Assembly: GCA_027483355.1 (NCBI GenBank)
Contig: JAIXUW010000355.1
Span: 1 to 44,737 of the forward strand
DNA length: 44,737 nucleotides
Reading direction: 5' to 3'
Origin: Alphaproteobacteria bacterium
Lineage (GTDB): Bacteria; Pseudomonadota; Alphaproteobacteria; Micavibrionales; UBA2020
The notes below the pieces were generated by a model, which saw only the letters and a list, made by a program, of their open reading frames with translations, did not search any database and was not told where the DNA came from. Shown here in pieces: positions 472-44,132 of this stretch; the first letter of the stretch is position 1; every line of letters begins with the position of its first letter. Position numbers and translations under genes: made by a program.

Positions 472-478
472 TAGGCGC

Positions 479-1786: not shown

Positions 1787-1791
1787 CCGTC

Positions 1792-3069: not shown

Positions 3070-3128
3070 TATTGCTTATGAATAAGTCATTGACCTCAAG
3101 ATCAAAAATTATTAAAAATACTTTTCGG

Positions 3129-4181: not shown

Positions 4182-4198
4182 GATTTCTCTCCTTTTGA

Positions 4199-4468: not shown

Positions 4469-4471
4469 ATT

Positions 4472-4885: not shown

Positions 4886-4897
4886 TTTCCGTCTCTT

Positions 4898-5551: not shown

Positions 5552-5560
5552 GAGACCTCT

Positions 5561-7185: not shown

Positions 7186-7196
7186 GTCGCCTCCTT

Positions 7197-11301: not shown

Positions 11302-11360
11302 GATTTTGCCTTTCCAGAGAGTATTTAAGTGGGGTATATTTCAGAAAAATGGAGCGTAAA

Positions 11361-12385: not shown

Positions 12386-12732
12386 GGTTGCACCTCAAAT
12401 TTCAGAACGACGCGCCAGCGGCCTGGGCCGAAATACTGGCGTTGCGGTGGTGCGCCGAAGACAACGGTGATCGTCCCGCTGTCCGCACCTGGCGTGGGCA
12501 GGTCAAAAGGCAGGGTTTCCTTGACGGTTTCTTGAAAGAAAGTGACCAAATCATCCCATTCCGCCGTCGTCATCACCATCGATCCTGTCATGGTGCGGAT
12601 ATTGGCAGTGGTTTTACGGCGGCGTTTGGGCGGCCCTGCGTCCATCGCCGTTGCGATGACGTTATCAGGCAAAGTATCGCTAAAATCCGAAGCTGCAAGC
12701 CGCTGCGGAAGAGTTAAAGGCCAGGTGAACAT
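12382..12732 (-). CDS. Minor tail protein (gpM-like)
   Basis: 116 aa, directly after the tape measure gene. The SD is GAGGTAA. Confidence 0.55.
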   Translation of the reverse strand: MFTWPLTLPQRLAASDFSDTLPDNVIATAMDAGPPKRRRKTTANIRTMTGSMVMTTAEWDDLVTFFQETVKETLPFDLPTPGADSGTITVVFGAPPQRQYFGPGRWRVVLKFEVQP

Positions 12733-12735
12733 AGA

Positions 12736-15141
12736 TTACCTCGATGCAAGTCCGCCAAAACGTGCCAGTGCCCGCGATGAGCGAGAGCCAGGATCGCTCA
12801 AAAGCTGGGCGTTCATCTCGTCCAGCTGGATGATCAGGTCGCGCCCGCCCGAAGCGTTGGATTTCTGCTGAACGGTCGCTTTTGCGCTCGTATTATTGTT
12901 GATCGTAACGTTAACTGTACCGCTTCCAGACATGGTGACAGGGATCGTGCGCCCGTCCGGTAACGGCACGTAGGCTTCGGGCTTGCGACCTTCGCCGAAC
13001 ATTGCGATTTGCGGAGAATTGGCGATACCGCCATTCGCGTACCGATGCAGGGGCAAAGCGCCCGCCGATGTCATGACTCCGCCTTGTTCAAAAGGAAGCA
13101 GGCCTGTGATAAACGATGAAAAACCACCGCTTTGCAGACTATTGAATAAAGGTTCTGTGATCGATTTCCGCACGGTCATGCGGAGGATATCGTCCATGAT
13201 CGAATTGAACAGGTCGCCCAGGGATTTCAGGCTGCGTCCGCCGGATTTAACGAATTCGACAATCGCATCCTCCGCACCGTTCATGGCGTTGGTGAAAAGT
13301 TTTTCGATATCCTTGGCTGTATCCTCCGCCTGTTCACGGTAGGCGCGAAATGCACGAAGCGCGCCGGCCTCCGCATCCTTGCGGGCGGCAAGGCTTTCTT
13401 GTTCGGCCTTGGCGACAGCGCGGTTATAGGTGTCCTGACTGATCGCGCCTGCATCAAGCAGTCCGTTCAAGCGTAAGATTTCTGAGGCATAAGCCTCCGT
13501 AGCGGAAAGCGTCGATTTGGTAACTTGTTCGCCATCGCTTTGCAGTTTGGAAAGGCTTTTTTGCGCCTCTCCATGATCGTAGAGCGCGGCGGCAAGACGA
13601 GTGACTTCATTCTGTTGATCTTGGGTTGCGCCATCTGACAGCCGAGACACGGCGTTTTGAATAAATGCCGCCCGTTTGTCTGCCAGAGCGCCGATCTGGT
13701 TGCCAAGATCGTTGACAACTTTTTGATTGGCTTGTGCGACGCGCTTTGCCGCCTCTAGCGAAGGCTTTTCGATAGCGGCGATTTTACGTTGGGCGATGGT
13801 TTCCGCTTCACGAATGGCCGCATCGACCGATCCCGTGTTGCTGCCGTCCTTTTCGCGCAGAGCATCCAGGCGCTGTTTCGTAACCGCCAGCTCCTTATTG
13901 ACCTTGGCGATCCGCTCGGAGGGCTCGGTCAGCAGACTATCAAGTGTGTCGTCCAGCGCCTTTCTTTGCTGGGAAAGCTGTTCGCTTCGAAAATCGCGCG
14001 CAGCCTGTTCTTGCCCCGCGATGGCGGCTGCTTTTTCATCCGCGATCTTTTTTGTTTGCTCCTTGGCTTCCTGTAGGATGCGGTCAAGATCGGCCTGCAA
14101 CCGTGCCACGCGCCGCTCATGGAGCTGGATGACCGAAAAACTGGCGTCACCATCCCTAAAGCGTTGCAAGACATCCTGCGCCTGCAGGAGCTTTTCTTGC
14201 GCCTTGAATATCTTTTCGCCTGTTGTGTCGTCTTTCAACAGGCCATTCAGCCCTTCAATGACCGTTGCAAGGCCGGATAGCGAGCTTTTGGCAGCGGTGC
14301 TGACCGTTTCCGTCTGGGCAATCCCTTTCAAAAGGTTGCCCCAGGCATCGGAAAGACGGTTTGTCGCTCCAGCAAGACCGCTGGTTTCAGCCCTGCCGGA
14401 ACCGCCAATTTTTTTCTCTAGCGCATCGAGGATCATCCTCTGCGCTTCGGCCTGCCGTCCGGTTTCGACCAGGGTCTGGATGGTATCGCGCTGGCTCTCG
14501 GTCAACAGGCGATAACTTTTTTGCAATCCGCCGAGGCCGTTGATCGGGTCTTCGAGGGCTTTGCCCAGCGCGGCAACATTGGATTTCAGGTCGCCACCGA
14601 ATGTCGCCGACATATCTTGCGCCAGCGTCAATGTGCGGGTAAAAGTATCGCCCGCGACGGTGCGGAAGGTCGCCAGCACGGTTGCGGCATCTTGCACCTG
14701 TTCGGCGGTCGCTAGCGTTGCTTTTTCAATTCCCTCAGCCGTGGCCACAATTTCGTTTGCGGTCAGGCCGGAGGAATTGCCCGTTGCGCGCAATACGGCT
14801 TCCAGGCGCATGAAAGACTGTTCCGCCTGCGCGGCGGCTTCGATACCCTTCAATAAACCCAGCGCGACAGCCGACAAAGCCACACCCGCCGCCAGACCAT
14901 ACGGACCTATGGCCGAAAGCGCAGACCCTAGTGGCCCCAGCTGTCCGGTCATGTTCAGCGCAGAGCCTTTGACATCGTTGGCGGCGGCGCTGATGGCCAG
15001 AAGCGCCTTTGAAGTGGGCTTGCCCGCCAATTCGATGCGCTTGAGGGACTTTTCACCAGTCTCCCCAATTTCACGCAGTTCGGCTTTGACCTTTCCCCCA
15101 TCGAGGACGGTCAGTCGGATGGCAAGATTGCGCTCTGTCAT
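12736..15141 (-). CDS. Tail tape measure protein
   Basis: 801 aa. It is Ala/Gln/Glu/Leu-rich and coiled-coil-like, with a Gly-rich hydrophobic stretch. It lies downstream of the G/GT chaperones. Confidence 0.9.
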   Translation of the reverse strand: MTERNLAIRLTVLDGGKVKAELREIGETGEKSLKRIELAGKPTSKALLAISAAANDVKGSALNMTGQLGPLGSALSAIGPYGLAAGVALSAVALGLLKGIEAAAQAEQSFMRLEAVLRATGNSSGLTANEIVATAEGIEKATLATAEQVQDAATVLATFRTVAGDTFTRTLTLAQDMSATFGGDLKSNVAALGKALEDPINGLGGLQKSYRLLTESQRDTIQTLVETGRQAEAQRMILDALEKKIGGSGRAETSGLAGATNRLSDAWGNLLKGIAQTETVSTAAKSSLSGLATVIEGLNGLLKDDTTGEKIFKAQEKLLQAQDVLQRFRDGDASFSVIQLHERRVARLQADLDRILQEAKEQTKKIADEKAAAIAGQEQAARDFRSEQLSQQRKALDDTLDSLLTEPSERIAKVNKELAVTKQRLDALREKDGSNTGSVDAAIREAETIAQRKIAAIEKPSLEAAKRVAQANQKVVNDLGNQIGALADKRAAFIQNAVSRLSDGATQDQQNEVTRLAAALYDHGEAQKSLSKLQSDGEQVTKSTLSATEAYASEILRLNGLLDAGAISQDTYNRAVAKAEQESLAARKDAEAGALRAFRAYREQAEDTAKDIEKLFTNAMNGAEDAIVEFVKSGGRSLKSLGDLFNSIMDDILRMTVRKSITEPLFNSLQSGGFSSFITGLLPFEQGGVMTSAGALPLHRYANGGIANSPQIAMFGEGRKPEAYVPLPDGRTIPVTMSGSGTVNVTINNNTSAKATVQQKSNASGGRDLIIQLDEMNAQLLSDPGSRSSRALARFGGLASR

Positions 15142-15799
15142 CTATTTTTCAACTCATCAGAGATTTTTTCATTGAGGGCCGCGGTCACGCCCGCGTCGCA
15201 AGCCGGAAGAAGTTCAGCCGTCCCTGTGCAGCTATAGCCCAGCGTTTCAGACATCTTCAGATAGGCCTGGAAATCCATACCCATAACGGTCGTGTTGATC
15301 ATGTGGAGCTGACTTGATGTTTTAAGGGTGACATCCCAGGCTTGCCAGCCTTCCAAAGTTTGCGGTGCGTGTTCGATGTAGGGACAGTTTTTGCAGAGAT
15401 TTTCGCAAGCATCGCAATAGTTCGGCCCGCCGCCAAAATGCCAGCGGCAACGAGCCGTCAGACGTTTTTTTCCTGTTCCAGTAGCAAGGCGGGTGCGAGG
15501 TACAAGCGCTCGAAGGCATCCGCCACGGGCCAGAGGTCAAGCAGAGCGTGGATATTGTCCGGCGTCGGCAGCAGAATGTTTCCGTCATCGTCTCCCACGC
15601 CCTCCCATTCAATAATGGCGATTTCAGCAAGGCATTTCAGAAGCGCCGTACCCCGCTGGATTGGATCTTCAGGGTTGTCTTTCAGCGCGGCAGTGCGGGC
15701 GGCCATGATGACCGCCGTCGATGCCGGACGTACGAAAAATCTGAGATTTGGAAGAATATCGAGCCAGTAGTTTTCACGTTTCAGGTTTAGGGTAATCAT
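15138..15799 (-). CDS. Tail assembly chaperone frameshift product (gpGT-like), made by -1 ribosomal frameshifting at 15464-15470
   Basis: I translated the -1 frame by hand. It is open from upstream of the slippery site down to 15138 (KKRLTARCRWHFGGGPNYCDACENLCKNCPYIEHAPQT then the tracked ORF 15138-15356). It ends with an ATGA overlap on the tape measure start. Confidence 0.75.
15458..15799 (-). CDS. Tail assembly chaperone (gpG-like)
   Basis: 113 aa located between the major tail protein and the tape measure. It ends ...EQEKNV-stop, with the slippery heptamer immediately before the stop. Confidence 0.8.
   Translation of the reverse strand: MITLNLKRENYWLDILPNLRFFVRPASTAVIMAARTAALKDNPEDPIQRGTALLKCLAEIAIIEWEGVGDDDGNILLPTPDNIHALLDLWPVADAFERLYLAPALLLEQEKNV
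15464..15470 (-). promoter_or_regulatory. -1 programmed ribosomal frameshift slippery heptamer A_AAA_AAC
   Basis: The minus strand reads GA[A AAA AAC] GTC TGA. This has the X_XXY_YYZ form in the zero frame, one codon before the gpG-like stop. Confidence 0.75.
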
Positions 15800-16740
15800 G
15801 CGTAAGTTTCCACATCGTTGTTAAGGGTGACGGTCAGCATACGGGCGGGGCTGGAAGCCTTCGCCGCTTGCCAGTCGAATGAGGCCTGAATACCGCCAGG
15901 GCCGCTGACGGCGAGTTTCGGTTTTGGTAAATAAACCTCATGCGCCGTGAAGACGAGGAAGAAATCCTCGCTGATCGTATAGGCGAACTCTAGCTCGATA
16001 GGCGTGTTGTTCGTGGCGGCGTCGATCAGCGCGGTGTCTGCAAACCGGACGTCGATGTTGCCCGTCAGCGCGGCGATGGTCGGGTCTGCGCCTTCGATCT
16101 TGCCGTCGGATCGGATGGTTTCGATCCTCTCCAGATTGTTGGTGTAGGTGAGCTGTGCGCCCGTGACGTTACCCAGAACCGATCCGTCCTTTTTGACCGA
16201 GCCTTGGAATTGGTTGAAGCGAGTCAGGCTAAGAGTTGTCAGCGTACCGCCGCCGCTACTGGAAGCGCGGGCTTCCCCTTGGGCGATGCAGTTGATGGTG
16301 GCGTTCGCAGCACCAGATCTGGAGAAACTGAGCTGAAGAGAGTTGGCGCGGATGCCCGAGCTGAGGAAATAGGCCGGAATGTCTGGCATTCCGATTTCGA
16401 GCGATAGGCTCGGCAGGGCCGCGAGACCAGAAACAAAGGTGTGAGTATAGTTAGCCCCGTCTTCCCCTGTCGTTGGTGCGCCTAAAAGGGCTTTCAGCCA
16501 GAGGCCGAAGTTTCGCAGGTCGACGGGCACGACGACGTTGCCCTCCACGCGGATTATATCGCGGATCGGGGCGGCGGGATCGCGGCCTTGCCCCAAAAGA
16601 TCGGAGGCAACCAGCCCCTGTTCCGAACCGAGGTCGGACGATACGAAGGGAAGCTGACTATAGTTTCCGCTGGGCGGTGTGCCGTAGCTGGACTCAAACT
16701 TCCCCACAAGCTGGGTATTCGCGCCGTATGCACGAGCCAT
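15796..16740 (-). CDS. Major tail (tube) protein
   Basis: 314 aa with a strong SD (AAAGGAGAGAAAT). Its position immediately upstream of the G/GT chaperones fits a major tail protein. Confidence 0.7.
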   Translation of the reverse strand: MARAYGANTQLVGKFESSYGTPPSGNYSQLPFVSSDLGSEQGLVASDLLGQGRDPAAPIRDIIRVEGNVVVPVDLRNFGLWLKALLGAPTTGEDGANYTHTFVSGLAALPSLSLEIGMPDIPAYFLSSGIRANSLQLSFSRSGAANATINCIAQGEARASSSGGGTLTTLSLTRFNQFQGSVKKDGSVLGNVTGAQLTYTNNLERIETIRSDGKIEGADPTIAALTGNIDVRFADTALIDAATNNTPIELEFAYTISEDFFLVFTAHEVYLPKPKLAVSGPGGIQASFDWQAAKASSPARMLTVTLNNDVETYA

Positions 16741-16790
16741 ATTTCTCTCCTTTTGTTAAATAAAATTCTGATTGCCACTAAAACTGGCTG

Positions 16791-17219
16791 TCAGCCGAGA
16801 GGATCGGCGGTGACGTAGATCAGCTCCAAAGTCACGGTGGCGGCTTTGATGGAGGCCGCGCCCTCGATGGCGAGGGTGTCGGTGTCAGGGGCTTGCGCCG
16901 TCAGGATGTCGCAAAGCCCGCCCAAGGTCTTGTTGGCGGCGACCATTGCTGAAATTCCTTCAAACAGCGTATCGAGCGCGGTATCGCGGGCAGCGGCAGT
17001 GTTTTTTTGCACAGCGACTTCCAGCCTTACGCGGTGCTGCCAGTAATAAGACAGGGGCGACAATATCGTCTCCGGCTCTCCTGGTTCTCCATCGCGCATG
17101 ACGATCAAGCCGCCGTCGGGGATTCTTTCGGGGAAGGCTTCGTTGCGGACAACCTTCATGCCAGAAATGGTTTGCAGGGCGGTGAACAAGGCTTGCAAAA
17201 TCGTTTCTCGCGCCGTCAT
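16791..17219 (-). CDS. Tail completion / terminator-like protein (DUF3168-like)
   Basis: 142 aa between the head-tail genes and the major tail gene, with an ATGA overlap upstream. Confidence 0.5.
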   Translation of the reverse strand: MTARETILQALFTALQTISGMKVVRNEAFPERIPDGGLIVMRDGEPGEPETILSPLSYYWQHRVRLEVAVQKNTAAARDTALDTLFEGISAMVAANKTLGGLCDILTAQAPDTDTLAIEGAASIKAATVTLELIYVTADPLG

Positions 17220-23122: not shown

Positions 23123-24082
23123 ATGACCGTCCCTTATACCAAACCCTATTTAACCCTCGATCAGCAGGTCGCGCTTTTGCAAGGCCGGGGAATGGGGATT
23201 CAGGACGTTCTGAAAGCGAAGCATTACCTTCAGCGTCTCGGTTATTATCGTCTGAGCGGATACTGGTATCCTTTCAGGCAATCCAGAATTGAGGCTACGG
23301 GCGCCGCCGTGCTGGACAATTTTAGAGCTGGCACAGAGTTTAGCCATGCCGTTGACCTTTATGTCTTCGACAAAAAACTCCGTCTTCTCATGATGGACGC
23401 CTTGGAGCGAATAGAGGTCGCCATTCGTGTCGATGTCTCTTCCGTCCTTGGCGTCCGCGATCCTTTCGCTCATAGAAACCCTGCTTTGCTGCACGGTAAC
23501 TTCACAAAGAAAATCGATCCGAAGACGAACAATACCTATTACATTGATTGGCGGCGACGCTTCGATGAACTGGCAGCGCGCTCGAAGGAGGACTTCGTCG
23601 TCCACTTCAAGAACAAATACAGCGATCCTTTGCCGATCTGGGTCGCGACGGAGCTTTGGGATTACGGTCTTTTGTCGAGGTTCCTGTCTGGCGTGAGCCA
23701 TAACGACCTTTCTACTATAGCGGCAAGATACGGCGTGCCGCGCCCGGATCTGTTGGCAAGCTGGGTCAGAAGCATGAACCACGTTAGAAATATTTGCGCG
23801 CATCATAGCCGCCTATGGAACAGGTCTCCTTCCGATCAGCCAAGAGTGCCGCGCAGAGGGGAAATCCCCATGCTCGACCATCTCGTAGCAGACCATTACG
23901 CTCAAGTTCATATTTACGCGGTTGCGGCGGTCATGCAGTACGTCCTACGAACGATCAACCCATCGTCACAATGGAAACAGCGCCTCAAAGATCACTTCGC
24001 TACGTTTCCAACGGCGCCGGGGATCAATGTGGGGCAAACGGGTTTCCCTCCTGACTGGGAAAATCTGCCACTCTGGTCTTAA
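23123..24082 (+). CDS. Abi_2 family (AbiD/AbiF-like) abortive infection protein
   Basis: KPYLTLDQQVALLQGRGMGI...AKHYLQRLGYYRLSGYWYPF is the characteristic Abi_2 N-terminus. The gene is on the opposite strand to all its neighbours and has lower GC. Confidence 0.8.
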   Translation: MTVPYTKPYLTLDQQVALLQGRGMGIQDVLKAKHYLQRLGYYRLSGYWYPFRQSRIEATGAAVLDNFRAGTEFSHAVDLYVFDKKLRLLMMDALERIEVAIRVDVSSVLGVRDPFAHRNPALLHGNFTKKIDPKTNNTYYIDWRRRFDELAARSKEDFVVHFKNKYSDPLPIWVATELWDYGLLSRFLSGVSHNDLSTIAARYGVPRPDLLASWVRSMNHVRNICAHHSRLWNRSPSDQPRVPRRGEIPMLDHLVADHYAQVHIYAVAAVMQYVLRTINPSSQWKQRLKDHFATFPTAPGINVGQTGFPPDWENLPLWS

Positions 24083-27278: not shown

Positions 27279-28505
27279 CTATTCAGTCGCTACCAATTCC
27301 GCTTTCTTGCCCGTAAATTCTTCCCAGCGCTTGACGATCACGTCGGCGTATTTAGGGTCAAGCTCGATCATGCGGCATTGACGGTTCAGTTTTTCGCAAG
27401 CGATGATCGTCGTGCCTGAACCGCCGAAGCAATCCAGCACAATATCTCGGCTCTTGCTACTGTTCTGAACGGCGCGTTCCACCAGCTCGACGGGCTTCAT
27501 CGTCGGGTGCAAGTCGTTGCGGACCGGCTTATTGACGAACCACACATCGCCCTGATTTCGCGCCCCGCACCAGAAATGGTCAGCGCCCTGTTTCCAGCCG
27601 TAAAGAATCGGCTCGTATTGCCTTTGATAATCGGCGCGGCCCAGAGTGAAAGTGTTTTTTGCCCAGATGATGAAGGTCGACCATTTTCCACCCGCCGCGA
27701 TGAAGGCCTTTTGGAGTGTATGCAGCTCGCTCGACGACATGCAGATATAGACCGCGCCCTTGCAAACGGTCAGCATATTGACACAGGAGTCGTAGAGAAA
27801 CTGCTCAAAGCCTTCGCCCAGATTGTCATTCATGATGGTGCGGTTGGTGCCGCGCATTTTGTCTTTTGCCGTGTTGCCGTAGTCCACGTTGTAGGGCGGA
27901 TCGGTGAACACCATGTCGGCCAGCTGGCCGTCCAAAACCCTTTCGACGTTGGCAAGCACGGTGCTGTCGCCGCAGAGAAGCCGGTGGTGGCCAAGCTTCC
28001 ACAGGTCGCCAGGCTTGCTGACGGGGGTGACGGGTGCTTCCGGCACGGCGTCTTCGTCCGTGTTTCCCGCCGCGACGTTGGAGTCGGCCAGCAAGTCCGC
28101 CAGTTCGTCGTCGGAAAAGCCGATGACGGGTAGATCGAAATTCTCCGCCGAAAGCGCGACCATTTCGGCGCGGAGCAAGTCTTCGTCCCAGCCCGCATTT
28201 AAGGCCAGTTTATTGTCCGCGATGACGTAGGCGCGCTTTTGCGCCTCGGTCAGATGATCCAGCACGACGACGGGGACTTGCGCGAGGCCGAGTTGTTTTG
28301 CCGCCTGGAGGCGGCCATGCCCTGCAATGATTCCCGCCGCCGTGTCGACGAGGATGGGATTGAGAAAGCCGAACTCCGCGATGCTCGCGGCGATCTGGCT
28401 TACCTGTTCCGTCGAATGAGTGCGTGGGTTCTTGTCGTAAGGGACGAGCTTATCCGCGGGCCAGACCTCGATGCGGTCGGCCATTTTTTTGTTCAAATCA
28501 GGCAT
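27279..28505 (-). CDS. ParB-like nuclease domain fused to N6-adenine/N4-cytosine DNA methyltransferase
   Basis: The N-terminal ParB/Srx-like domain reads NPRTHS...LVDTAAGIIAGHGR. Motif IV is TDPPYNV and motif I is LDCFGGSGTTIIA. The SD is GAGGAAC. Confidence 0.85.
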   Translation of the reverse strand: MPDLNKKMADRIEVWPADKLVPYDKNPRTHSTEQVSQIAASIAEFGFLNPILVDTAAGIIAGHGRLQAAKQLGLAQVPVVVLDHLTEAQKRAYVIADNKLALNAGWDEDLLRAEMVALSAENFDLPVIGFSDDELADLLADSNVAAGNTDEDAVPEAPVTPVSKPGDLWKLGHHRLLCGDSTVLANVERVLDGQLADMVFTDPPYNVDYGNTAKDKMRGTNRTIMNDNLGEGFEQFLYDSCVNMLTVCKGAVYICMSSSELHTLQKAFIAAGGKWSTFIIWAKNTFTLGRADYQRQYEPILYGWKQGADHFWCGARNQGDVWFVNKPVRNDLHPTMKPVELVERAVQNSSKSRDIVLDCFGGSGTTIIACEKLNRQCRMIELDPKYADVIVKRWEEFTGKKAELVATE

Positions 28506-29731
28506 AGTTGTTCCTCAGATTTTGAGACCCGCAGAAGCAGAGAGAGTTCGGAACGCATAAGCCGCAACCAGCGGGACGACCCCGTTACCGCAGAGGCGCA
28601 GTCTGTCCACCCGATAGGCCAGCCCATCAGCGCCTCCACGAACAGCGGGTTCAAGGTCAGGCCGGTATTGGAGGTAACGCCGCCATCCTTCAGCGTCCGT
28701 GGGGCCTGGCGGGAAAGGTTGCTCCGGCTCTCGGCATTGCTGTTGTGGATCACGCCGTCCTTCCAGTCCCGCGCCGTCGGTGTCGCCCAATGGCGGGTCA
28801 CGATCTCTTTCAATCCGACCCCGTGGGTCGCGGCGTTGCTCCCTGGCTCCTGCGCGCGCGGCGTTGGCCATTTGGTTCTTGTGTGCGCCCGCGCCACGCG
28901 GTAAGGACGCTCGGTCTGCGCCAGCGTCAAATCCTGTTTCGTATAGGGAAAATCCCTCGGTTGCATCACTGTCTCCGCGAGCGACGGTGTTCGCAACACG
29001 TTCCGTCCGTCCTTGCGGATCATCTTTTCGGGCGGACGGGCGCGGGTTACGGTCGCATCCGTTGCCGTGGCTGTCGGCCAGAGGACGGTCTGCGCCGTCA
29101 GCGACCCGTAGCAGCGATCCGTCCGGTCGCCATTGCGTTTGAGGAACGTTTCCTGCTTCTCCGCGCTCTCCTGCGCTCTCGGTGTAAGCCAGGATGAAGA
29201 GCCGTTCGCGCTTGTGGGACGCACCGACTTCTTCCGCCGTAAACAATCCCGCCGCAACGCGGTAACCCATTGATCGAAGGTCATCGTGGACTTGTTCGAA
29301 TCCCAGTCGTAGATGCCCGCCGACGTTCTCAAAGAAACAAAGGCGGGGTTCGATCTCGCGCACGATGCGGGCGACGTGGGGCCAAAGGTGTCGTGGGTCT
29401 TTGTCTCCGAGCTTGCGTCCGGCGACGGAAAACGGCTGGCACGGATAGCCGCCATGAACGATATCCACCGCGCCGCGCCAAGCGTTGCCGTCGAAGCTGG
29501 CAAGGTCGTCCCAGACAGGTGCGCGATCCAGGGCCTTGTCTTCCATCCGCGCCACGAGCGTGGCCGCTGCATAGGCTTCCCGCTCAACGTAACCCACAGT
29601 TCGATATCCGGCGTGGGCAAGGTGGAGTCCGAGATCGAGGCCGCCAGCTCCGGCGCAGAGGGAGAGACCGAACAGACTTCCTCCCCCGTCGTTTGCGTCA
29701 AAGCATCCGGCGGGAGATAAAGCCACGTCAT
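28493..29731 (-). CDS. Alternative-frame ORF overlapping the whole C5-MTase gene; its 3' half encodes WPTP-type repeats and a motif-IX-like segment (beta-like candidate, possible internal start at 28966)
   Basis: The ORF is open for 412 codons from an ATG 4 nt downstream of the frame-A start. It encodes WLTPRAQES, WPTATATD, WPTPRAQEP, WATPTARDW and LNPLFVEALMGWPIGWT. An internal ATG at 28966 has GGAGA 5 nt upstream. The 5' half may be only a shadow of frame A. Confidence 0.45.
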   Translation of the reverse strand: MTWLYLPPDALTQTTGEEVCSVSPSAPELAASISDSTLPTPDIELWVTLSGKPMQRPRSWRGWKTRPWIAHLSGTTLPASTATLGAARWISFMAAIRASRFPSPDASSETKTHDTFGPTSPASCARSNPAFVSLRTSAGIYDWDSNKSTMTFDQWVTALRRDCLRRKKSVRPTSANGSSSWLTPRAQESAEKQETFLKRNGDRTDRCYGSLTAQTVLWPTATATDATVTRARPPEKMIRKDGRNVLRTPSLAETVMQPRDFPYTKQDLTLAQTERPYRVARAHTRTKWPTPRAQEPGSNAATHGVGLKEIVTRHWATPTARDWKDGVIHNSNAESRSNLSRQAPRTLKDGGVTSNTGLTLNPLFVEALMGWPIGWTDCASAVTGSSRWLRLMRSELSLLLRVSKSEEQLCLI

Positions 29732-37616: not shown

Positions 37617-37789
37617 TATTTGTTTCCTTTCTGCGTTTTGAGTTTGAGAGCGCCGCGCAACCAGCGGGCGATCAGTTCGGCCTTCGCCAAGAGGCGGCGA
37701 AGTTCGGTTTCGTCGAGTTCGAGAAGCTGTCCCACGGGCGTGGTGTAGACGGCGTCGAGGGAGTCGTTGGGGGAGCGGACGTCAGACAT
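37616..37789 (-). CDS. Small hypothetical protein (57 aa)
   Basis: The internal ATG at 37789 is preceded by GAAGGAGG. The upstream part of the 108-aa track ORF is Arg/Pro/Ser-rich shadow overlapping the HTH gene. Confidence 0.45.
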   Translation of the reverse strand: MSDVRSPNDSLDAVYTTPVGQLLELDETELRRLLAKAELIARWLRGALKLKTQKGNK

Positions 37790-38030
37790 GTGCGCCTCCT
37801 TCGGCCTCTGCGGACTCGTCGTCGGACAGCGGAACGCCACCGTCCTTGAGCGTGCCCTCGCGCAGATGCTCGGCCTCGTAGGTCTCGATGTCGGAAAGGC
37901 GGTAAAGAATCCTGCCGCCGATCTTGATGTAGGGAGGGCCATAGGCCATCCATCTCCAGCGCTCCAACGTGCGGGCCGTAAGATCCCACCGCCGTGCGAG
38001 CTGGTGTTGGTTCAGGTGCGTGTCGCTCAT
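37782..38030 (-). CDS. HTH DNA-binding protein (MerR/AlpA-excisionase-like), first gene of the early operon
   Basis: LNQHQLARRWDLTARTLERWRWMAYGPPYIKIGGRILYRLSDIETYE is an HTH_17-like pattern. The SD is AAAGGAGA. Confidence 0.7.
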   Translation of the reverse strand: MSDTHLNQHQLARRWDLTARTLERWRWMAYGPPYIKIGGRILYRLSDIETYEAEHLREGTLKDGGVPLSDDESAEAEGGAHV

Positions 38031-38086
38031 TCTGCATCTCCTTTCGTGTTGTGCGTGTTCGACAAGGGACAGAATGCGAAAATGGA

Positions 38087-38127
38087 GGTGTGGTAATCGG
38101 TGCGCGGACGGTGTGAAAATCGGTGTG
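38087..38127. promoter_or_regulatory. Two 18-nt direct repeats GGTGTGNNAATCGGTGYG upstream of the early operon (operator candidates)
   Basis: 38087-38104 and 38110-38127 are identical at 16 of 18 positions with a 23-nt register. They lie between the upstream terminator and the HTH gene. Confidence 0.4.
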
Positions 38128-38147: not shown

Positions 38148-38177
38148 AAAAAAGGCCCCTGACGGGTGTCAGGGGCC
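38148..38177 (-). terminator. Rho-independent terminator of the three-gene operon
   Basis: GGCCCCTGAC pairs with GTCAGGGGCC, a 10-bp stem with a 4-nt loop. TTTTTT follows on the minus strand. The structure lies 35 nt after the stop at 38212. Confidence 0.75.
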
Positions 38178-38211: not shown

Positions 38212-39135
38212 TCAGTAGAAGGCGAGCCTGTAGTTGCCTTGGCTATCGAACAGGATCAGCACGTTCCATGCGGGATGGTATTTTCCGCTCTTGCGGAACA
38301 CGCCCTTCGGGTCGTCTTGGCTCGAATGCTTTGCCATGAATTCTGTCTTGTGCAGGGGCTTTCCTGCCGTGTGAAGCTCTTCAATGATCGCCGCCTGCGT
38401 CTTGCTGAAATCATAGTCCACGCCGTTAAAACGAACGGTGCGGTATCCGTCGCTATATCCGTCTGTGGCGGGCGTCACGCCACCGCCAAGTAGGGCTTGC
38501 GTTCGCGCCATGTCGATCTTGAAATAGTCTGTTTGCTCCACGATATCCGGCAGGGAAAGGACGGTCGCGTGTTCCGCCACGCGCACGCAATCATTCGCGG
38601 CGGCGGTAAGGACGATGACCTTCTTGCCCTTATGCACGGATTTTATCTCTTTTAGTAAGACATCGACGATATCGTCGGTACGCAGGTGACGTGCAAAAAA
38701 GACGGGAATGGATGATTTACCGAAGGCTGCGTCCCCGATGCTCCAGACATGGTCGGACATCAATTCGCGGGGCATGACACGCTTAGAAATGCCTAACCCT
38801 TCTGCGATCCAGCGCAGAAGCCAGGGCAGATCGAGGCTGTATTGGCGCAGATCGTCGGGATCGACCGAGACCCACCCGTTTTCGCCCCAATAGCCGCTTT
38901 TCTTGTCGCCCCGGAAGACGATCTCCGCCTCCACCTCGTCGTCGCCCTGCGGTACCGAGATAAATTTAAGGTTCTCGGCGGCAACCAGGCCGTTCTTCTT
39001 CAAGAGCGCCATACCCGTCTTTTCGAACCTTTCCGTCAACAGGCGATGCGAGACGAGCGGTCGCGTCTGACGGCAGATGTCGCAGGCCGCGAGAAAAACA
39101 TCGGTCTGTAGGCGTGATTGCGTGACGGCGGCCAT
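38212..39135 (-). CDS. Unknown-function protein C (307 aa), third gene of the accessory operon
   Basis: The ATG abuts the upstream TAA (TAAATG), with AAGGAAGAA upstream. No family was recognised. The only motif-like string is GDAAFGKS (aa 134-141), which is Walker-A-like but lacks a convincing Walker B. Confidence 0.6.
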   Translation of the reverse strand: MAAVTQSRLQTDVFLAACDICRQTRPLVSHRLLTERFEKTGMALLKKNGLVAAENLKFISVPQGDDEVEAEIVFRGDKKSGYWGENGWVSVDPDDLRQYSLDLPWLLRWIAEGLGISKRVMPRELMSDHVWSIGDAAFGKSSIPVFFARHLRTDDIVDVLLKEIKSVHKGKKVIVLTAAANDCVRVAEHATVLSLPDIVEQTDYFKIDMARTQALLGGGVTPATDGYSDGYRTVRFNGVDYDFSKTQAAIIEELHTAGKPLHKTEFMAKHSSQDDPKGVFRKSGKYHPAWNVLILFDSQGNYRLAFY

Positions 39136-40305
39136 TTATTCTTCCTTGATCAGCTTCCACCGTGCCAGATATTTATCGCCGATCAAGCGTTCCTTCTCGG
39201 TGCGGCTCTTGAGGTCGCAACGATTGGGCATCGTGATCTTGACGGGCAGAGACTTCCCGCGCTTTTCGCCTTCGGTCGGATAGAATTTTACAACGATCTT
39301 GGCCTGCGTCAGGAAAAACCCGCCCTTGAGCGGATCGTTCTGCTGGAACCAGTCGTTTACGCGACCGTAGATGGAGCCTGAATATTTTGAGAGGTAGTCG
39401 AAGGTGACCCGGCCTTCGCCGTCCATCGGCTTCAACGTCAGCGATACGACCGTGACGGATTCGATCCCGTCTTCGGGATCGGTCGGAAACGTGCGCGGCG
39501 CAATGAGGGTGGAGATGTCGTATTTCTTCAAGGGAAGGCGCACAACGTCGATCTTCGTGCCGAGCAGGGTTTCGCTGAAAAGACGGGCGACCGTCTCCCG
39601 CTGTTCCTTGCTCTGCGCGATCACCTCGATCTCGCCCGTGCCAGATTCGTAGCAGATGACGATCTCATATACGGGACGGCGGATTTTAACGACGATCTCG
39701 TCCTTCTCCAGTGCTTTGTAGCTGTCGGGAAGCCCTTCCTTGTAAACGACGATCTGATTGATGGTCGTGACAACGCCGTCCTCGTCTTCGTTCTCGCGGC
39801 TGTATGCCTCGATCTTCATCTTCGTATCCTGGCCGAAAACTTCTGCGGCAAGGCGCGTACGGAACGCTTCGAGGTCGAGATCGGCATCGGAAACGGTCTT
39901 ATCCTTGGGGCCGACGAAGCCGTCCCACATGCGCCCGAGGCGGTTGTGGTTGGCGTAGCGCGTCTCTTCGGCGTGGCGGAAGGATTCGTTATCGCTATTG
40001 AAGACCCACATCGCACGGTCGTGGGCGTTCGCCAGGGTGTTGAACACGCTTGTATCGGTCAGGACGGACAGAAGAGCCGTCTGGCCTTCCTCGTCGGTCA
40101 TTTCATTGATGCGCTCGGCATTGTGACGCAACAGCTCGTATTCGTCACGATCCATGTCATCCACGGCTTGAAGCAGGGGTTTGACGTGATCGTCTTGCTC
40201 CTGAGGCCATGCGAATTTTTCCGCGAGGATCGGAGCGTTGCTGTTGATGTAGGACGCCATTGCGGCGCGGGGCGTGTGGCGGATAAAATTCGCGATGGCG
40301 TTCAT
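39136..40305 (-). CDS. Unknown-function protein B (389 aa), second gene of the accessory operon
   Basis: It has a clean ATG with AAAGGAAAT upstream. The N-terminal half is acidic and helical, and the C-terminal half is beta-rich. I see no TM segment and no recognisable catalytic motif. Confidence 0.6.
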   Translation of the reverse strand: MNAIANFIRHTPRAAMASYINSNAPILAEKFAWPQEQDDHVKPLLQAVDDMDRDEYELLRHNAERINEMTDEEGQTALLSVLTDTSVFNTLANAHDRAMWVFNSDNESFRHAEETRYANHNRLGRMWDGFVGPKDKTVSDADLDLEAFRTRLAAEVFGQDTKMKIEAYSRENEDEDGVVTTINQIVVYKEGLPDSYKALEKDEIVVKIRRPVYEIVICYESGTGEIEVIAQSKEQRETVARLFSETLLGTKIDVVRLPLKKYDISTLIAPRTFPTDPEDGIESVTVVSLTLKPMDGEGRVTFDYLSKYSGSIYGRVNDWFQQNDPLKGGFFLTQAKIVVKFYPTEGEKRGKSLPVKITMPNRCDLKSRTEKERLIGDKYLARWKLIKEE

Positions 40306-40327
40306 TTATATTTCCTTTTGTTGAAAA

Positions 40328-40603
40328 TTACTTGTTCAAATTTTCTTTCAGCCAAGAGCCAGTCTCGTCGCTGAGGCCGGACCATGCCGCTTCTCCGTTC
40401 AATCTGCCGACGAACAACTCATCGTTATTATCGATATACTGCTTGAGATTGTTACGGATGCTTTCGGAATTGCTGGATGAAACGATTATGTATGTGGTCG
40501 TGGCGATCTTCGCCCAGGTGCCGTATGCTTTGATTGCCTTCTCCAGCGATTCGTAGTTCTGCCCGGTCTTATTCAGATCGTAGGTAATGATGTAAGAGGC
40601 CAC
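40328..40603 (-). CDS. Unknown-function small protein A (~91 aa), first gene of the accessory operon; ferredoxin-like/Cas2-like pattern by eye
   Basis: The track start at 40612 is a GTG overlapping the SD. GTG at 40603 lies 8 nt after AAGGAG. The sequence is ASYIITYDL...YESLEKAIKAYG...TYIIVSSSNSESIRNNLKQYI...ELFVGRL. GC is lower than in its neighbours. Confidence 0.55.
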   Translation of the reverse strand: MASYIITYDLNKTGQNYESLEKAIKAYGTWAKIATTTYIIVSSSNSESIRNNLKQYIDNNDELFVGRLNGEAAWSGLSDETGSWLKENLNK

Positions 40604-40738
40604 TTGCCACACTCCTTTTGTTTCGTTATAACGTGTATCGCTAGGTAGAACTTTACGCTATCGTCGGCGTTTTCGGTTGTCAAGTACGATTTGTAACGCT
40701 ATACCGAACATACGATAGCATGACGAGAACGGAGAATT

Positions 40739-41065
40739 ATGGTGAGCGCAACTCTTGGGCACAAAATAAACCAATTACGTAAAGAAAAAAGCATGACCCT
40801 GGAACAACTCGCGGAAAAGACCGAGTCCAGCAAAGGGTATATCTGGGAGCTAGAGAACCGCGAGACCAAGCGCCCCTCGGCGGAAAAATTGCAAAAAATT
40901 GCAGAGGCGCTCGGCGTGACGACCGTGTTCCTGCTCGATGAGGACCAAGCTCGTCCCGATGACGAGGTCTTGAAGCAAGCGTTGTTCCGCAAGCTCGGCA
41001 AATTGCCTGAAGACGATCAAAAAAGAATTATGAAGATCATTGAATCCTGGGGTGACGAAACGTGA
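40739..41065 (+). CDS. XRE-family HTH transcriptional regulator (ImmR / CapH-like)
   Basis: LGHKINQLRKEKSMTLEQLAEKTESSKGYIWELENRETKRPSAEKLQKIAEALGV is an HTH_3 pattern. The SD is GGAGA. It is divergent from the three-gene operon. Confidence 0.85.
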   Translation: MVSATLGHKINQLRKEKSMTLEQLAEKTESSKGYIWELENRETKRPSAEKLQKIAEALGVTTVFLLDEDQARPDDEVLKQALFRKLGKLPEDDQKRIMKIIESWGDET

Positions 41066-41970
41066 CCATCGTTCTTCCCACGACCCCCGCCGCTTGGGCG
41101 ATCAAGCTGTCGCAACTCCTGCAGCATATCCAGGCCACGACGAATGAAAGCATATATCCTATCAAAATACAGGATCTCGCTTGCGATATCTCGAAGCATT
41201 TCTTTCCTTCCGATCCCCTTGTGCGCGTCTGTGGCGATACGTTCTCCACGGAATTCGATGGGATGATGGTCAAGAAAAACGGACAGTGGGGGATCGTATA
41301 CAACGATGCGATCACCTCGCGGGGACGGATCAACTTCACGTTGGCGCACGAATTCGGCCATTATCTGCTCCACCGCGCCGATCTTGAAAACGGCATCCAA
41401 TGCGGACGCAACGAGATGATGAAATGGAAATCCGAGCAGAGGAACATCGAGGCCGAGGCCAACGAATTCGCGTCCCACCTCTTGATGCCGATAAATATTT
41501 TCAGAGAGAAGGTTAACGGCGAGACGCTGGATTTAAACCTGTTCCAAAACATCGCGGAATACTTCGACGTTTCTCTCACCGCCGCGCTTCTTAAATGGAT
41601 CAGCTTCACGAGCAAGCGCGCCATGATCGTCGTCGCCAAGGATGGCTTCGTTAAATGGGCGAAACCGAGCGATGCGGCCTTCAATTCCGGTATCTACCTC
41701 GCCTACAAGAAAAACCTTATTGAGCTTCCCGCACAATCTCTCGCGGCGCGCAGAGACACATTCTTCGATAACATGGCGGGAACGGATCACGCCACGGGCA
41801 TCTGGCCTTTCCGCGAAGGCGTTCGCGAGGCGACCTTGCTGGCGGATACCTATGACATGACGATCTCTCTGTTGTTATTCAATGATGTCGCGCCCGTCCG
41901 CTATTTCGGGGAAGAAATGCCGGAAGAAGATACGTTCGACAGGTTTCAAAGAATGGCCATCAACGGTTAA
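41062..41970 (+). CDS. ImmA/IrrE-family zinc metallopeptidase (DUF955; ImmA / CapP-like)
   Basis: The HEXXH motif appears in FTLAHEFGHYLLH. The GTG start overlaps the XRE stop (GTGA). Confidence 0.85.
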   Translation: MTIVLPTTPAAWAIKLSQLLQHIQATTNESIYPIKIQDLACDISKHFFPSDPLVRVCGDTFSTEFDGMMVKKNGQWGIVYNDAITSRGRINFTLAHEFGHYLLHRADLENGIQCGRNEMMKWKSEQRNIEAEANEFASHLLMPINIFREKVNGETLDLNLFQNIAEYFDVSLTAALLKWISFTSKRAMIVVAKDGFVKWAKPSDAAFNSGIYLAYKKNLIELPAQSLAARRDTFFDNMAGTDHATGIWPFREGVREATLLADTYDMTISLLLFNDVAPVRYFGEEMPEEDTFDRFQRMAING

Positions 41971-42343
41971 ACCCAAACCACTTGCGCTGCTCCTCCCATA
42001 CGAGCGGAAAAGGCTTCAGCATATCGATCAGGCGTAGTCCCTTGGGATGGTTGCCATCGAGAATATCACGCTTGATGTCTGGCGCCAGAAGGTTGAGGCG
42101 CATGACCCGCGCCATGTAAGACCCGTTAATGCCCTCCCGTTTTGCCAAATCGGTCGCGCTTGCCGCCTTTCCCTCCTTCAATGCATTGTTCCAGACGTAC
42201 GCGCGCAACAGCGCGGCGATGATGGTATCGTCAGGCTCCGGCGCGATCCGCGCAGGTGCTGATCCATCGGGGGAGAAAATGAGCTTTCTGCCGCCCCTGC
42301 GGACGAGCTTCACAGGAATGCGGATAGTGAGATTGTCGCTCAT
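41960..42343 (-). CDS. Recombinase-associated small protein (127 aa)
   Basis: There is an ATGA overlap with the recombinase stop. MRLNLLAPDIKRDILDG is a motif typical of accessory proteins next to large serine recombinases, recognised from memory only. Confidence 0.55.
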   Translation of the reverse strand: MSDNLTIRIPVKLVRRGGRKLIFSPDGSAPARIAPEPDDTIIAALLRAYVWNNALKEGKAASATDLAKREGINGSYMARVMRLNLLAPDIKRDILDGNHPKGLRLIDMLKPFPLVWEEQRKWFGFNR

Positions 42344-43674
42344 ACCTTCCCCCGTTTCTGATAACCCACCACGTCATGGGCGAGATTTTCAAGGCCACTG
42401 ACACGCATTTTGATGTCTACGCCCTCGGTATCGACGGTGACGTGTTCGACCAGCAGGTTCACGATCCGCAACTGTTCGGCAGGGAACAGCTCTTTCCACA
42501 CAGGGCCGATGTCGCTTAAAGCCTTCTTCACTTCCTGTTCGGTTACGCTTGCGTCCTGCACGTGGGCCGCGGCCCATGTGCGGACAACCGTCTCTGGTTC
42601 GACGAAGAAACGTTGCAACTGCCCGACCACCACATCCTCAAGCTCTCCTGCTGGGATCGCGCCGAGGGGGCATCCATCGCATCCGCCCTTGATGATCTGG
42701 CTCGGCTTGTAATACCGATAATGCTTGCCGTTCTTCATCGTGTATGTAGGCGACATGACGGACTTGCACCCGCCGCATCGCACCAGTCCTTTGAGCAAGG
42801 CTGGGTTTTTAGCCGCCGTGACGCGAGCGCGCGGGCTGACTTGCATGACGGCATGAGCTTCGTCCCACAGTGCTTTGTCGATAATGGACTCGTGCTGACC
42901 TGGGTAGGACTTGTCCCTGTGCGGAATCTCGCCCAGATAGAGACGGTTTTTTATGGTGCGATAAACCTGATTTTTTGTGAAGAAGCGTGGAATCCGCTCG
43001 TTGCCCGTTTGCGTGATATAGCTTTTGGTGCGGATATCGGTCGTCTTCAATTCTTTGGCCAGAAGCGTGACAGAGCGCAGGGTTATGAAGCGTTCGAAGA
43101 TATATCTAACCTGCTTGGCTTCGGTCTCGTTGACGATCAGCTTTCTATCCTTCACATCGTATCCCAACGGCGGCGTTCCGCCCATCCACATGCCTTTGCG
43201 CTTCGATGCCGCAAATTTATCGCGGATACGTTCCCCGATGACCTCGCGCTCGAACTGCGCGAAAGACAGAAGAATATTGAGCGTGAGTCGCCCCATGGAC
43301 GTGGTGGTGTTGAATTGCTGGGTGACGGAGACGAAACTGACATTGTGGCGGTCGAACACGTCAACCAGCTTGGCAAAGTCCGTCAGCGACCGTGACAAAC
43401 GGTCGACTTTGTAAACGACGATCACGTCGATCGCGCCAGCCTCCACGTCTCGCATGAGTCGTTTCAGCGCGGGACGCTCCATCGATCCACCGGAAAACCC
43501 GCCATCGTCGTAATGATCCGCGACGAGCGTCCAGCCCTCGTGCCGTTGCGAGAGGATATAGGCTTCTCCCGCCTCGCGCTGGGCGTCGAGGCTGTTGAAC
43601 TCCATGTCCAATCCTTCTTCGGTGGACTTGCGAGTGTAGACCGCACAACGGATTCTGCGCTTGATATCGCTCAT
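42340..43674 (-). CDS. Large serine recombinase (phage integrase)
   Basis: ATG at 43674 begins MSDIKRRIRCAVYTRKSTEEG. The motifs VVYKVDRLSRSL and the recombinase domain GGTPPLGYD are present. A C-terminal Cys cluster reads CGGC...CDGC. Confidence 0.9.
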   Translation of the reverse strand: MSDIKRRIRCAVYTRKSTEEGLDMEFNSLDAQREAGEAYILSQRHEGWTLVADHYDDGGFSGGSMERPALKRLMRDVEAGAIDVIVVYKVDRLSRSLTDFAKLVDVFDRHNVSFVSVTQQFNTTTSMGRLTLNILLSFAQFEREVIGERIRDKFAASKRKGMWMGGTPPLGYDVKDRKLIVNETEAKQVRYIFERFITLRSVTLLAKELKTTDIRTKSYITQTGNERIPRFFTKNQVYRTIKNRLYLGEIPHRDKSYPGQHESIIDKALWDEAHAVMQVSPRARVTAAKNPALLKGLVRCGGCKSVMSPTYTMKNGKHYRYYKPSQIIKGGCDGCPLGAIPAGELEDVVVGQLQRFFVEPETVVRTWAAAHVQDASVTEQEVKKALSDIGPVWKELFPAEQLRIVNLLVEHVTVDTEGVDIKMRVSGLENLAHDVVGYQKRGKV

Positions 43675-44132
43675 GCCGATTTCCCCTTTCTGCCCGCCGC
43701 CGTGGAGGGTGCGAGGCCGAAGAAAGAGGGACCAGACCAAGCCATGCCCGTGATGATCTGCGCGATGCGCGAGAGGCTCTTGTATTTGCGCCCTTCAAAA
43801 GCGAACCCGTCCGCCAGCACCGTGACGCGATATTGTGTCCCTTGGTATTCGCGCAGGAGGCGTGTCCCTGCGGGCGGGCGATTGATCTTCGTCTTGCGTT
43901 TTTGCCGCGCATTCTGGCTCAGGACAATCCGCGCTCGTTCCGACATACGCTTTTCCAAAACCTCGTCATCCCCGCCGTAGGCCAACTCCTGTATGCGATA
44001 CGTCAAGCGGCTGACGAGATAGGTGCGGTTGAATTCAGGGGGATCGGTGCGGTACAGCTCGCGCCAGAGCGACTTCAACTGCCCCACAGGCATTGTCTTC
44101 AAAGCTGTAATCTTCGCCAAAACATCGCTCAT
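43671..44132 (-). CDS. DUF2924-family protein (serine recombinase partner)
   Basis: LKTMPVGQLKSLWRELYRTDPPEFNRTYLVSRLTYRIQELAYGG is a DUF2924 pattern. There is an ATGA overlap with the recombinase start. The SD is AAGGAGAA. Confidence 0.7.
   Translation of the reverse strand: MSDVLAKITALKTMPVGQLKSLWRELYRTDPPEFNRTYLVSRLTYRIQELAYGGDDEVLEKRMSERARIVLSQNARQKRKTKINRPPAGTRLLREYQGTQYRVTVLADGFAFEGRKYKSLSRIAQIITGMAWSGPSFFGLAPSTAAGRKGKSA

Follow-up and report, generated by a model that had tools for sequence, protein, structure and literature searches.

A conserved two-protein module beside a CapH/CapP-like regulator pair in an alphaproteobacterial prophage: a candidate relay from DNA damage to the replication genes

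Several described systems resemble the locus reported here. CapH repressors and CapP metallopeptidases form pairs in which CapP cleaves CapH after activation by DNA damage or single-stranded DNA (bioRxiv 10.1101/2022.04.27.489752; PMC13228613). Such pairs control immune operons, and one operon described as 'DUF2188 + two hypothetical proteins' is given as likely defence (Lau et al. 2022). In phage lambda, RexA is an RdgC-fold protein that is encoded beside cI and also modulates the lysis-lysogeny switch; the RexA, RdgC and CENP-L/N (Iml3-Chl4) folds constitute one family (PMC11077077). We have analyzed a stretch of 44,737 nucleotides (contig JAIXUW010000355.1, positions 1 to 44,737 of the forward strand, assembly GCA_027483355.1; hereafter the window) from a member of the Micavibrionales (UBA2020). 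It contains a siphovirus-like prophage with genes for a terminase, portal, tape measure and J-like tail protein, together with a DEAD helicase, a Cas4-like exonuclease, a primase-helicase, Sak4 and methyltransferases. Divergent from a CapH/CapP-like pair in this prophage lie three genes, here called A, B and C, which an initial annotation from the sequence alone had put forward as a three-gene defence or host-takeover system.

From their gene order and sequences in related genomes, B and C constitute a conserved two-protein module in a large family of prophages, most of them from Alphaproteobacteria, with a serine recombinase and Sak4. We propose that this module switches on the replication genes of the prophage after DNA damage, acting as a transcriptional relay, and we put the probability of this reading at about 0.5. 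In a lysogen, the CapH-like repressor would hold the A-B-C promoter off; DNA damage, through single-stranded DNA, would activate the CapP-like peptidase, the repressor would be cleaved, and A, B and C would be made. C would then recognize four phased direct repeats through a predicted C-terminal winged helix of the OmpR/PhoB-like type. These repeats lie just downstream of the operon's own terminator, at what would be the -35 place of the next promoter, and binding of C there would switch on the delayed-early operon (HTH_17, Sak4, helicase, exonuclease and primase). B, with its predicted RdgC/RexA-type fold, may assist C, either by clamping DNA non-specifically or as a co-factor. As the terminator would block read-through into the delayed-early operon, the relay would be obligatory.

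Part of the evidence for this proposal is the repeat array and its relationship with C. The array consists of four copies of [C/G][A/G]CACC on the reverse strand (starts at 38127, 38115, 38104 and 38092; spacings of 12, 11 and 12 base pairs, bp) and lies between the terminator and the start of the HTH_17 gene at 38030. It is unique in the window, where CACACC-N5-7-CACACC is expected 0.01 times, and a chain of four repeats occurred in none of 200 shuffles. Across lineages the same layout is found 95 to 60 nucleotides upstream of the HTH_17 ATG, constant to within about 3 nucleotides, and at least four phased copies are present in 40 of 91 distinct upstream regions (44%), versus 1.1% of shuffled or coding controls.

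Among the related prophages the layout of the array is kept and the sequence of the repeat changes between lineages. There is a one-to-one correspondence between the repeat classes and the clusters into which C proteins fall by their C-terminal domain: CCTACC (26 loci), CCTCCC (14 loci), CACAC (7 loci, the window included), TGCCCGCC (6 loci), CCAC and CCTAAC (3 loci each). When motif distance is compared with protein distance by phylogeny-unaware statistics, the Spearman coefficients are 0.79 for C, 0.63 for B, 0.53 for HTH_17, 0.41 for CapP, 0.27 for CapH and 0.22 for Sak4, with partial coefficients of 0.48 for C, 0.14 for HTH_17 and 0.08 for B. Not one of the 229 pairs with C-terminal domains of C that are at least 70% identical differs in motif. 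Conversely, 94 pairs whose HTH_17 proteins are at least 70% identical do differ, and these have different C proteins; some of the HTH_17 proteins are 93% identical, for which reason HTH_17 was rejected as the array binder. CapH was also dropped as a candidate, given its poor motif correlation and the lack of its candidate operator at the array. The match between motif and C holds across insertions of 1-1.8 kb that place AbiE or toxin-antitoxin genes between C and the array, and in one locus with no phage genes nearby (L001) C, the terminator and a CACACC array are all retained upstream of unrelated genes.

We propose from this co-variation that C is a sequence-specific binder of the repeat array. 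Because C co-varies with a promoter-proximal array, the locus points to regulation rather than to defence or host takeover. The initial annotation had suggested as an alternative that A, B and C are the first genes derepressed on induction and act in anti-defence or host takeover; early derepression is the best fit to the evidence, and the host-takeover part is disfavored by the array.

Two other explanations of the array have to be weighed. The first is that C is a repressor acting at the array, a second immunity factor that silences the replication operon, with B and C expressed in the lysogen from a CapH-insensitive promoter. The array overlaps the likely -35/spacer region, which is also repressor territory; fast divergence would fit the behavior of an immunity region; and in 16 loci B-C is co-transcribed with an XRE-ImmA or LexA-like repressor, as rexAB is with cI. 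Against this, B-C is divergent from CapH in 86 loci, as CapH-repressed operons are, so that damage would raise the level of the repressor and oppose induction, and the C model contains no evident inactivation mechanism such as a cleavage or sensor domain. We regard a repressing C as distinctly unlikely and infer that it activates.

The second is that the repeats are replication-origin iterons, with C a two-winged-helix initiator similar to plasmid Rep or lambda O proteins and B a loading or remodelling partner. Four direct repeats whose sequence tracks that of a fast-evolving, predicted DNA-binding protein would suit an origin, as would the location of the locus immediately upstream of replication and recombination genes and the predicted ring or clamp-type DNA-binding fold of B. 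Typical iterons, however, are 17-22 bp long, whereas the repeats here have a core of 6-8 bp and a period of one helical turn, and the fixed distance of the array from the HTH_17 start (to about 3 nucleotides) is expected of a promoter element and not of an origin. There is no AT-rich unwinding region beside the array. Two loci (L001 and L023) have B-C and the array but not the replication genes, and phages with the same replication genes (85-92% identity) are found without B-C. An origin at this position is, in our judgement, very improbable.

The linkage of B and C is close throughout. Using family hidden Markov models (HMMs), C is found directly after B in 79 of 80 genome loci, with the B stop and C start overlapping or abutting across loci, and in two loci the genes are fused into a single open reading frame (ORF) of about 740 amino acids (aa), B domain first and C domain second (L117, 2620-4842; L144, 4402-6639). 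The backbone that most loci have in common with the window is DUF2924, serine recombinase, orf127, CapP and CapH, followed divergently by an optional small gene, B and C, and beyond C by an optional insert, HTH_17, phrog_36009, Sak4, helicase, exonuclease and primase. Sak4 (about 80% identity across relatives) and the helicase (about 63%) are well conserved, and B and C evolve much faster: B is 38-50% identical in genome loci and as little as 19% in viral contigs, and C is about 25% identical. Both B and C are present in 32 of the 40 IMG/VR contigs that were anchored on Sak4 and have at least 5.5 kb upstream; in another four, B lies beyond the recombinase and behind a LexA-like gene, and no C was detected there. 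The B family as a whole comprises 103 protein clusters and is matched by 230 stretches in a collection of species-representative genomes, mostly from Alphaproteobacteria with some from Gammaproteobacteria and Magnetococcales, and all of these proteins are unnamed. We found neither the B nor the C family described in the literature or databases, and nothing relevant on RdgC-like defence proteins or on this prophage family; the two families are new, as are the predicted RdgC-fold partner and the pattern of a recognition code, and a phage early regulator that follows a damage-cleaved repressor is a known kind of system.

The gene upstream of B is always a regulator of the damage type, although its kind varies. 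CapH/CapP, divergent from B-C, is present in 86 loci, an XRE gene followed by an ImmA-like peptidase gene on the same strand in 11, a LexA-like S24 gene on the same strand in five, and a fused XRE-M78 gene in one (L096). Insertions are frequent between C and HTH_17, a hotspot where 12-17 loci have AbiEi/AbiEii genes and six have an Xre-RES toxin-antitoxin pair; examples are L036 (2904-4573), L009 (10082-11316) and about 20 other loci. In L163 (1830-3142), a DarT gene (PF14487) and a NADAR-DarT1 gene lie directly after CapH-CapP on the same strand, and these may be a DarTG-type toxin-antitoxin pair under the same damage-responsive regulators. The AbiE, Xre-RES and DarT-NADAR genes in the slots flanking B-C are real defence or toxin-antitoxin cargo; B-C itself is so constant across the phage family that it is unlike swappable defence cargo of this sort.

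The B protein has a helical, acidic N-terminal part (about residues 1-121; pI 4.8 for residues 3-121) and a beta-rich remainder, just as the initial annotation had it. By sequence, it matches a phage family with no assigned function (phrog_37634, 3e-75), and tblastn against GenBank phage records gave no match. Pfam, NCBIfam, PADLOC and PDB sequence searches yielded no useful match for either B or C, and neither has a PADLOC-DB v2 family at E-values up to 0.1. A CobS_N match for B was discarded as non-conserved or sub-threshold, and a profile match to RPRD1B as a coiled-coil artefact. The AlphaFold2 model of B (predicted local distance difference test score, pLDDT, 89; predicted template modelling score, pTM, 0.74) was compared with structure libraries using Foldseek. 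The best matches in the PDB are to RdgC (2owl and 2owy; E-value 2e-4, probability 0.99-1.0), with CENP-N/L also recovered, and the matches among viral models (BFVD) are to phage proteins named 'RdgC' and 'exonuclease' (E-values 4e-6 to 1e-4). The likeness of B to RdgC is probably a resemblance at the level of the fold only.

This predicted fold suggests two further roles for B. It could act mainly on host recombination and the SOS response, as RdgC does on RecA, either damping RecA or shielding phage DNA ends, with C targeting or regulating B. RdgC folds are the top matches in two structure libraries, expression is tied to four kinds of DNA-damage sensor, and a recombination module of Sak4 and a Cas4-like exonuclease lies downstream. 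Set against these are the lack of sequence similarity between B and RdgC, the constant pairing or fusion of B with C, and the array, for which this explanation does not account. We consider it quite unlikely as the main role, and as a second activity of B it would be compatible with the relay.

Alternatively, B-C could be a prophage exclusion or defence module comparable to lambda RexAB, in which a DNA sensor with the RexA/RdgC fold and its partner, induced by damage through CapH/CapP, would protect the lysogen or abort infection. This has several attractions. B has a predicted RdgC/RexA/CENP-L/N fold, and RexA, whose gene adjoins cI, itself has the RdgC fold (PMC11077077); immune operons are under the control of CapH/CapP pairs, including the likely defence operon of Lau et al.; defence and toxin-antitoxin genes occupy the flanking slots; the replication genes are much slower to diverge than B and C; and some close relatives are without B-C. 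In L001, furthermore, B-C is sited among UvrD/TerB-type helicases, Vsr and type I restriction-modification genes. But PADLOC has no match for B or C, and, as the initial annotation had noted, neither protein has a nuclease, NTPase, TIR or Sir2 domain, nor a membrane domain; C has no hydrophobic segment and is soluble, unlike RexB. The lambda RexA structure (8twq) ranks only 36th in the fold search with B (E-value 0.17, probability 0.11), and profile alignment does not match it. The repressor gene of the window is divergent from B-C and not co-transcribed with it; across the family, B-C is near-constant and syntenic, with true defence cargo varying around it; and a C-specific array at a fixed promoter position is left unexplained. 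We think a RexAB-like role unlikely. Of the defence or host-takeover function first suggested for the locus, the coupling to CapH/CapP stands, and the near-constancy of B-C in the prophage family, the absence of an effector-type domain and the co-variation with the array speak against the rest. Similarly, where enrichment in prophages or defence islands had been raised, B-C proves near-universal and syntenic in one prophage family and has a defence-island-like setting in a single locus, L001.

The AlphaFold2 model of C has a pLDDT of 85.5, and its last 85 or so residues show the order of strand, three helices and hairpin that is seen in OmpR/PhoB effector domains. From this model we predict that C is a winged-helix DNA-binding protein at its C-terminus. 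Matches of the model to whole response regulators are weak (E-values 0.02-0.09). The Walker-A-like string GDAAFGKS, to which attention had been drawn previously, is not conserved across the family, in which only W131, G134 and R149 are, and a P-loop in C was rejected on these grounds.

Several results weigh against the proposed relay or against the predictions on which it draws. The Foldseek matches of B to RdgC-type structures have TM-scores of just 0.2-0.33 with root-mean-square deviations of 10-16 A, and none of 30 B-family members matches the RdgC family (PF04381) at E-values up to 1. Alignment of the B profile using hhalign gives a probability of 0.03 with Escherichia coli RdgC and no signal with lambda RexA, each being a single-sequence target and so of low sensitivity. 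For C, the Foldseek matches to OmpR/PhoB DNA-binding domains have probabilities of 0.85-0.93 and TMt of 0.44-0.53 with weak E-values (0.15-0.6), and a scan of 35 family members at E-values up to 1 recovered neither Pfam Trans_reg_C nor any helix-turn-helix (HTH) family. The array adjoins C in most loci, and part of the co-variation, to an unquantified extent, could reflect a shared recombination history. In the 16 loci where B-C is co-transcribed with a repressor gene, an activator would require a low, autoregulated basal level. Four of the 40 Sak4-anchored contigs, including the two with the most similar Sak4, have no B, C or CapH/CapP. L001 (Micavibrio sp. UBA1672, 1-17158) resembles a defence island, and no phage genes are seen around B-C there: together with its terminator and array, B-C lies among two large helicase genes, one UvrD-like with a TerB domain, a Vsr-like ORF and a type I restriction-modification system (HsdR, HsdS). 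Finally, neither of the two control regions received a sigma-70 promoter call in a generic scan, and our choice of CATTCT (38071-38076) as the -10 element of the HTH_17 promoter is a guess.

In contigs without B-C at this position, an ORF of 180-200 aa with a weak Sigma70_r2 match is present just upstream of the Sak4 operon (L081, 5662-6267; L114, 7690-8238). This ORF may be an alternative early regulator in those phages, in keeping with the relay.

The product of the divergent XRE gene matches the PADLOC capH model at 1.1e-30 (model positions 4-100 of 103), and the M78 protein matches capP at 1.1e-64 (positions 4-241 of 242) and Pfam Peptidase_M78 at 1e-16. A region of 135 bp is common to these regulators on the forward strand and to A-B-C on the reverse strand. 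It contains a TTGACA (40678-40683, reverse strand) that is conserved in an alignment with relatives, and an inverted 8-mer, GCTATCGT/ACGATAGC, at 40657-40664 and 40712-40719, which is a candidate CapH operator; the 8-mer has no further copy in the window and none in the HTH_17 promoter. Control of the A-B-C promoter by CapH would fit this arrangement. The 'DUF2188 + two hypothetical proteins' operon of Lau et al. may be the same module as B-C, a match that is by description only.

Features of the locus are listed in Table 1. A begins with a GTG codon 8 nucleotides after an AAGGAG, and the same start is kept in relatives; in the mechanical ORF list the gene runs as far as 40612. A and B are separated by 22 nucleotides, which include an AAGGA ribosome-binding site, and the B stop abuts the C start at TAAATG. 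The terminator has a 10-bp stem with 8 G-C pairs and folds as RNA at -37.5 kcal/mol (z = -5.9; none of 200 shuffles folds equally well), and it is kept in relatives and in L001. These details agree with the initial annotation in its account of a discrete transcription unit with tight packing and a TAAATG junction, a dedicated strong terminator, and a promoter region shared divergently with an XRE/ImmA-IrrE-type pair in the CapH/CapP manner, with the regulators upstream of the operon on the opposite strand. It was also correct that A, B and C have no transmembrane segments (maximum hydropathy below 1.0) and that A is of lower G+C content (0.478, versus 0.566 for B and C). The downstream operon has the order HTH_17, a 57-aa gene, phrog_36009, Sak4, helicase, Cas4-like exonuclease and primase. 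Its first gene matches Pfam HTH_17 at 1e-4, under the curated cutoff, and phrog_66; its synteny is kept in 66 of 80 loci, and gene calls in relatives concur. The HTH_17 protein (37782-38030) may be an excisionase, an AlpA-like regulator or an antiterminator.

Table 1. Features of the A-B-C locus and its surroundings in the window
Feature	Coordinates	Strand	Description
HTH_17 (excisionase/AlpA-like) gene	37782-38030	-	First gene of the downstream operon
Four phased direct repeats	38087-38127	-	Array that C is proposed to bind, within the next operon's promoter
Intrinsic terminator closing A-B-C	38148-38177	-	Stem-loop 38154-38177, T-run 38148-38153
Gene C	38212-39135	-	307 aa, fast-evolving, predicted C-terminal OmpR/PhoB-type winged helix
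Gene B	39136-40305	-	389 aa, acidic helical N-terminal domain and predicted RdgC/RexA/CENP-L/N-like two-domain body
Gene A	40328-40603	-	91 aa, standalone Cas2-like (phrog_1090)
Divergent control region	40604-40738	.	Between A and the CapH-like gene
CapH-like XRE repressor gene	40739-41065	+	108 aa, PADLOC capH and Pfam HTH_3
CapP-like M78 metallopeptidase gene	41062-41970	+	302 aa, PADLOC capP and Pfam Peptidase_M78
Large serine recombinase gene	42340-43740		Window prophage

Gene A has a different history from B and C. An HMM of its family has no match in 160 loci related to the window prophage, with or without B-C, and A was found solely in the closest relatives (L161-L164, 64-70% identity); elsewhere its slot is empty or is occupied by a DUF2188 gene (about 30 loci) or by an SNase-like one (9 loci). 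Since A is absent from 160 of the 160 related loci, it is an independent insert between the promoter and B rather than part of the B-C module, and the co-occurrence that a three-gene A-B-C system would show is missing; such a system was rejected, as A is never with B-C beyond the closest relatives. The Cas2-like appearance first remarked on in A found some support in searches, with matches to phrog_1090 at 9e-27 and weak ones to PADLOC Cas2 models at 5e-5 to 0.017. Of the claim that none of the three proteins could be placed, this leaves B and C, which fall in no named family; A has phrog_1090 and the weak Cas2 matches. It scores below the curated Cas2 cutoffs (Pfam PF09827, 18.2-18.5 bits against 23.8; TIGR01573, 17.3 against 24.5), Cas2 is recovered from the PDB by profile search with an E-value of 0.083, and 13 of 38 aligned family members have a weak Cas2 match. 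There is no association with cas1, as the two genes adjoining A are B and the CapH-like gene; the window was not searched for a CRISPR array.

An exhaustive search places A in a family of 1680 representative clusters of proteins of about 90 aa; no stretch of the family is conserved enough for a degenerate-pattern search of viral contigs. Homologues in GenBank phages are solitary genes near repressor or metalloprotease genes, a feature that A shares with standalone phage Cas2-like proteins (phrog_1090). Those in Staphylococcus phage records (42-45% identity) are named Cas2, and one in a Mannheimia phage is annotated as hypothetical only. Across temperate phages, members of the family recur as lone genes within immunity and early regions. 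In Staphylococcus phage SN8 (L170, 3001-3264), the homologue is near an XRE and metalloprotease pair and close to a TIR-domain gene, and the A family may generally travel with immunity regions of this XRE-metalloprotease kind.

Some other parts of the window resemble insertions or defence genes. A 319-aa protein encoded beside the terminase gene, on the opposite strand (23123-24082, forward strand), matches Pfam Abi_2 (AbiD-like abortive infection) at 1.8e-53, and its gene resembles a defence insert inside the prophage. The left end of the window (479-3069, reverse strand) is of low G+C content (0.47-0.48) and encodes a C-5 cytosine DNA methylase (1792-3069; Pfam 7e-58) and then a 435-aa protein with a weak AAA_5 match (479-1786); located at the prophage edge, these two could be a restriction-modification or McrB-like pair. 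A 188-aa ORF in the tail module (11349-11915, forward strand), on the opposite strand and with a G+C content of 0.397, has no Pfam match and resembles an inserted gene. Two adjoining DNA methyltransferase genes are present at 27279-29731 (reverse strand), the first fused to a ParB-like nuclease domain (phrog_498, phrog_15396).

If the relay operates as proposed, it explains how a damage sensor of the CapH/CapP type is connected to lytic gene expression in a large, mostly alphaproteobacterial group of temperate phages. It also predicts a protein-DNA recognition code in which at least six types of C each have their own repeat motif. The families of B and C are widespread, occur in many viral contigs as well, and have no annotation. 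A note of caution for defence mining follows, in that operons adjacent to CapH/CapP are read as probable immune systems and B-C resembles the phage's own induction circuit. A broader idea, which we hold to be speculative and somewhat doubtful, is that B-C represents a new two-component transcription switch, in which B, a clamp with the RdgC/RexA fold, is the obligatory co-factor of the winged-helix protein C. As a portable cassette of several damage-sensor families, it would drive prophage induction and, as at L001, non-phage operons that include restriction-modification genes, or it would serve in addition for Rex-like exclusion. In both cases, the RdgC/RexA fold would gain a defined, sequence-targeted regulatory function and a concrete partner.

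Comparison with known systems shows where the locus is familiar and where it departs from them. Like CapH/CapP pairs, and also ImmR/ImmA and DdrO/IrrE, the regulators in the window are upstream of, and divergent from, the operon they would control. In contrast to described CapH/CapP pairs, they adjoin the prophage integrase and are the sole evident master repressor, as with ImmR/ImmA, and the genes under their putative control are no known immune system.

The best structural matches of the B model are in the RexA/RdgC/CENP-L-N fold family, and B, like lambda rexA, is located in an immunity region, where it has a repressor gene beside it and a coupled partner gene after it. It has no sequence similarity to either RexA or RdgC, and it has an added acidic helical domain of about 120 residues. 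RexB is a membrane protein, whereas the partner of B is soluble and predicted to bind DNA, and rexAB is co-transcribed with the repressor gene, whereas B is divergent from it in most loci.

Phased 11-bp direct repeats that replace the -35 element are the classic target of PhoB/OmpR-type activators, the pho box. The predicted winged helix of C is of the same type, and its proposed target similarly comprises four direct repeats with a core of 6-8 bp and a period of 11-12 bp; the array in the window ends about 10 bp before a weak -10-like element, as in those promoters. C differs from these activators in having no recognizable phospho-acceptor receiver domain and no kinase, and in having an extra N-terminal domain and an obligate partner with a predicted RdgC fold.

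The logic of the proposed relay, in which an early product is required for the next block of genes, is that of the phage relays AlpR-AlpA of Pseudomonas aeruginosa, Mor/C of Mu, Ogr of P2 and Q/N of lambda. In the same manner, a repressor cleaved on damage would release an early operon of few genes, and HTH_17, further downstream, may in turn encode an AlpA-like factor. The B and C proteins are unrelated to those of the known relays, and the switch proposed here would employ two proteins, one of them with an RdgC-type fold, and a phased array of four sites.

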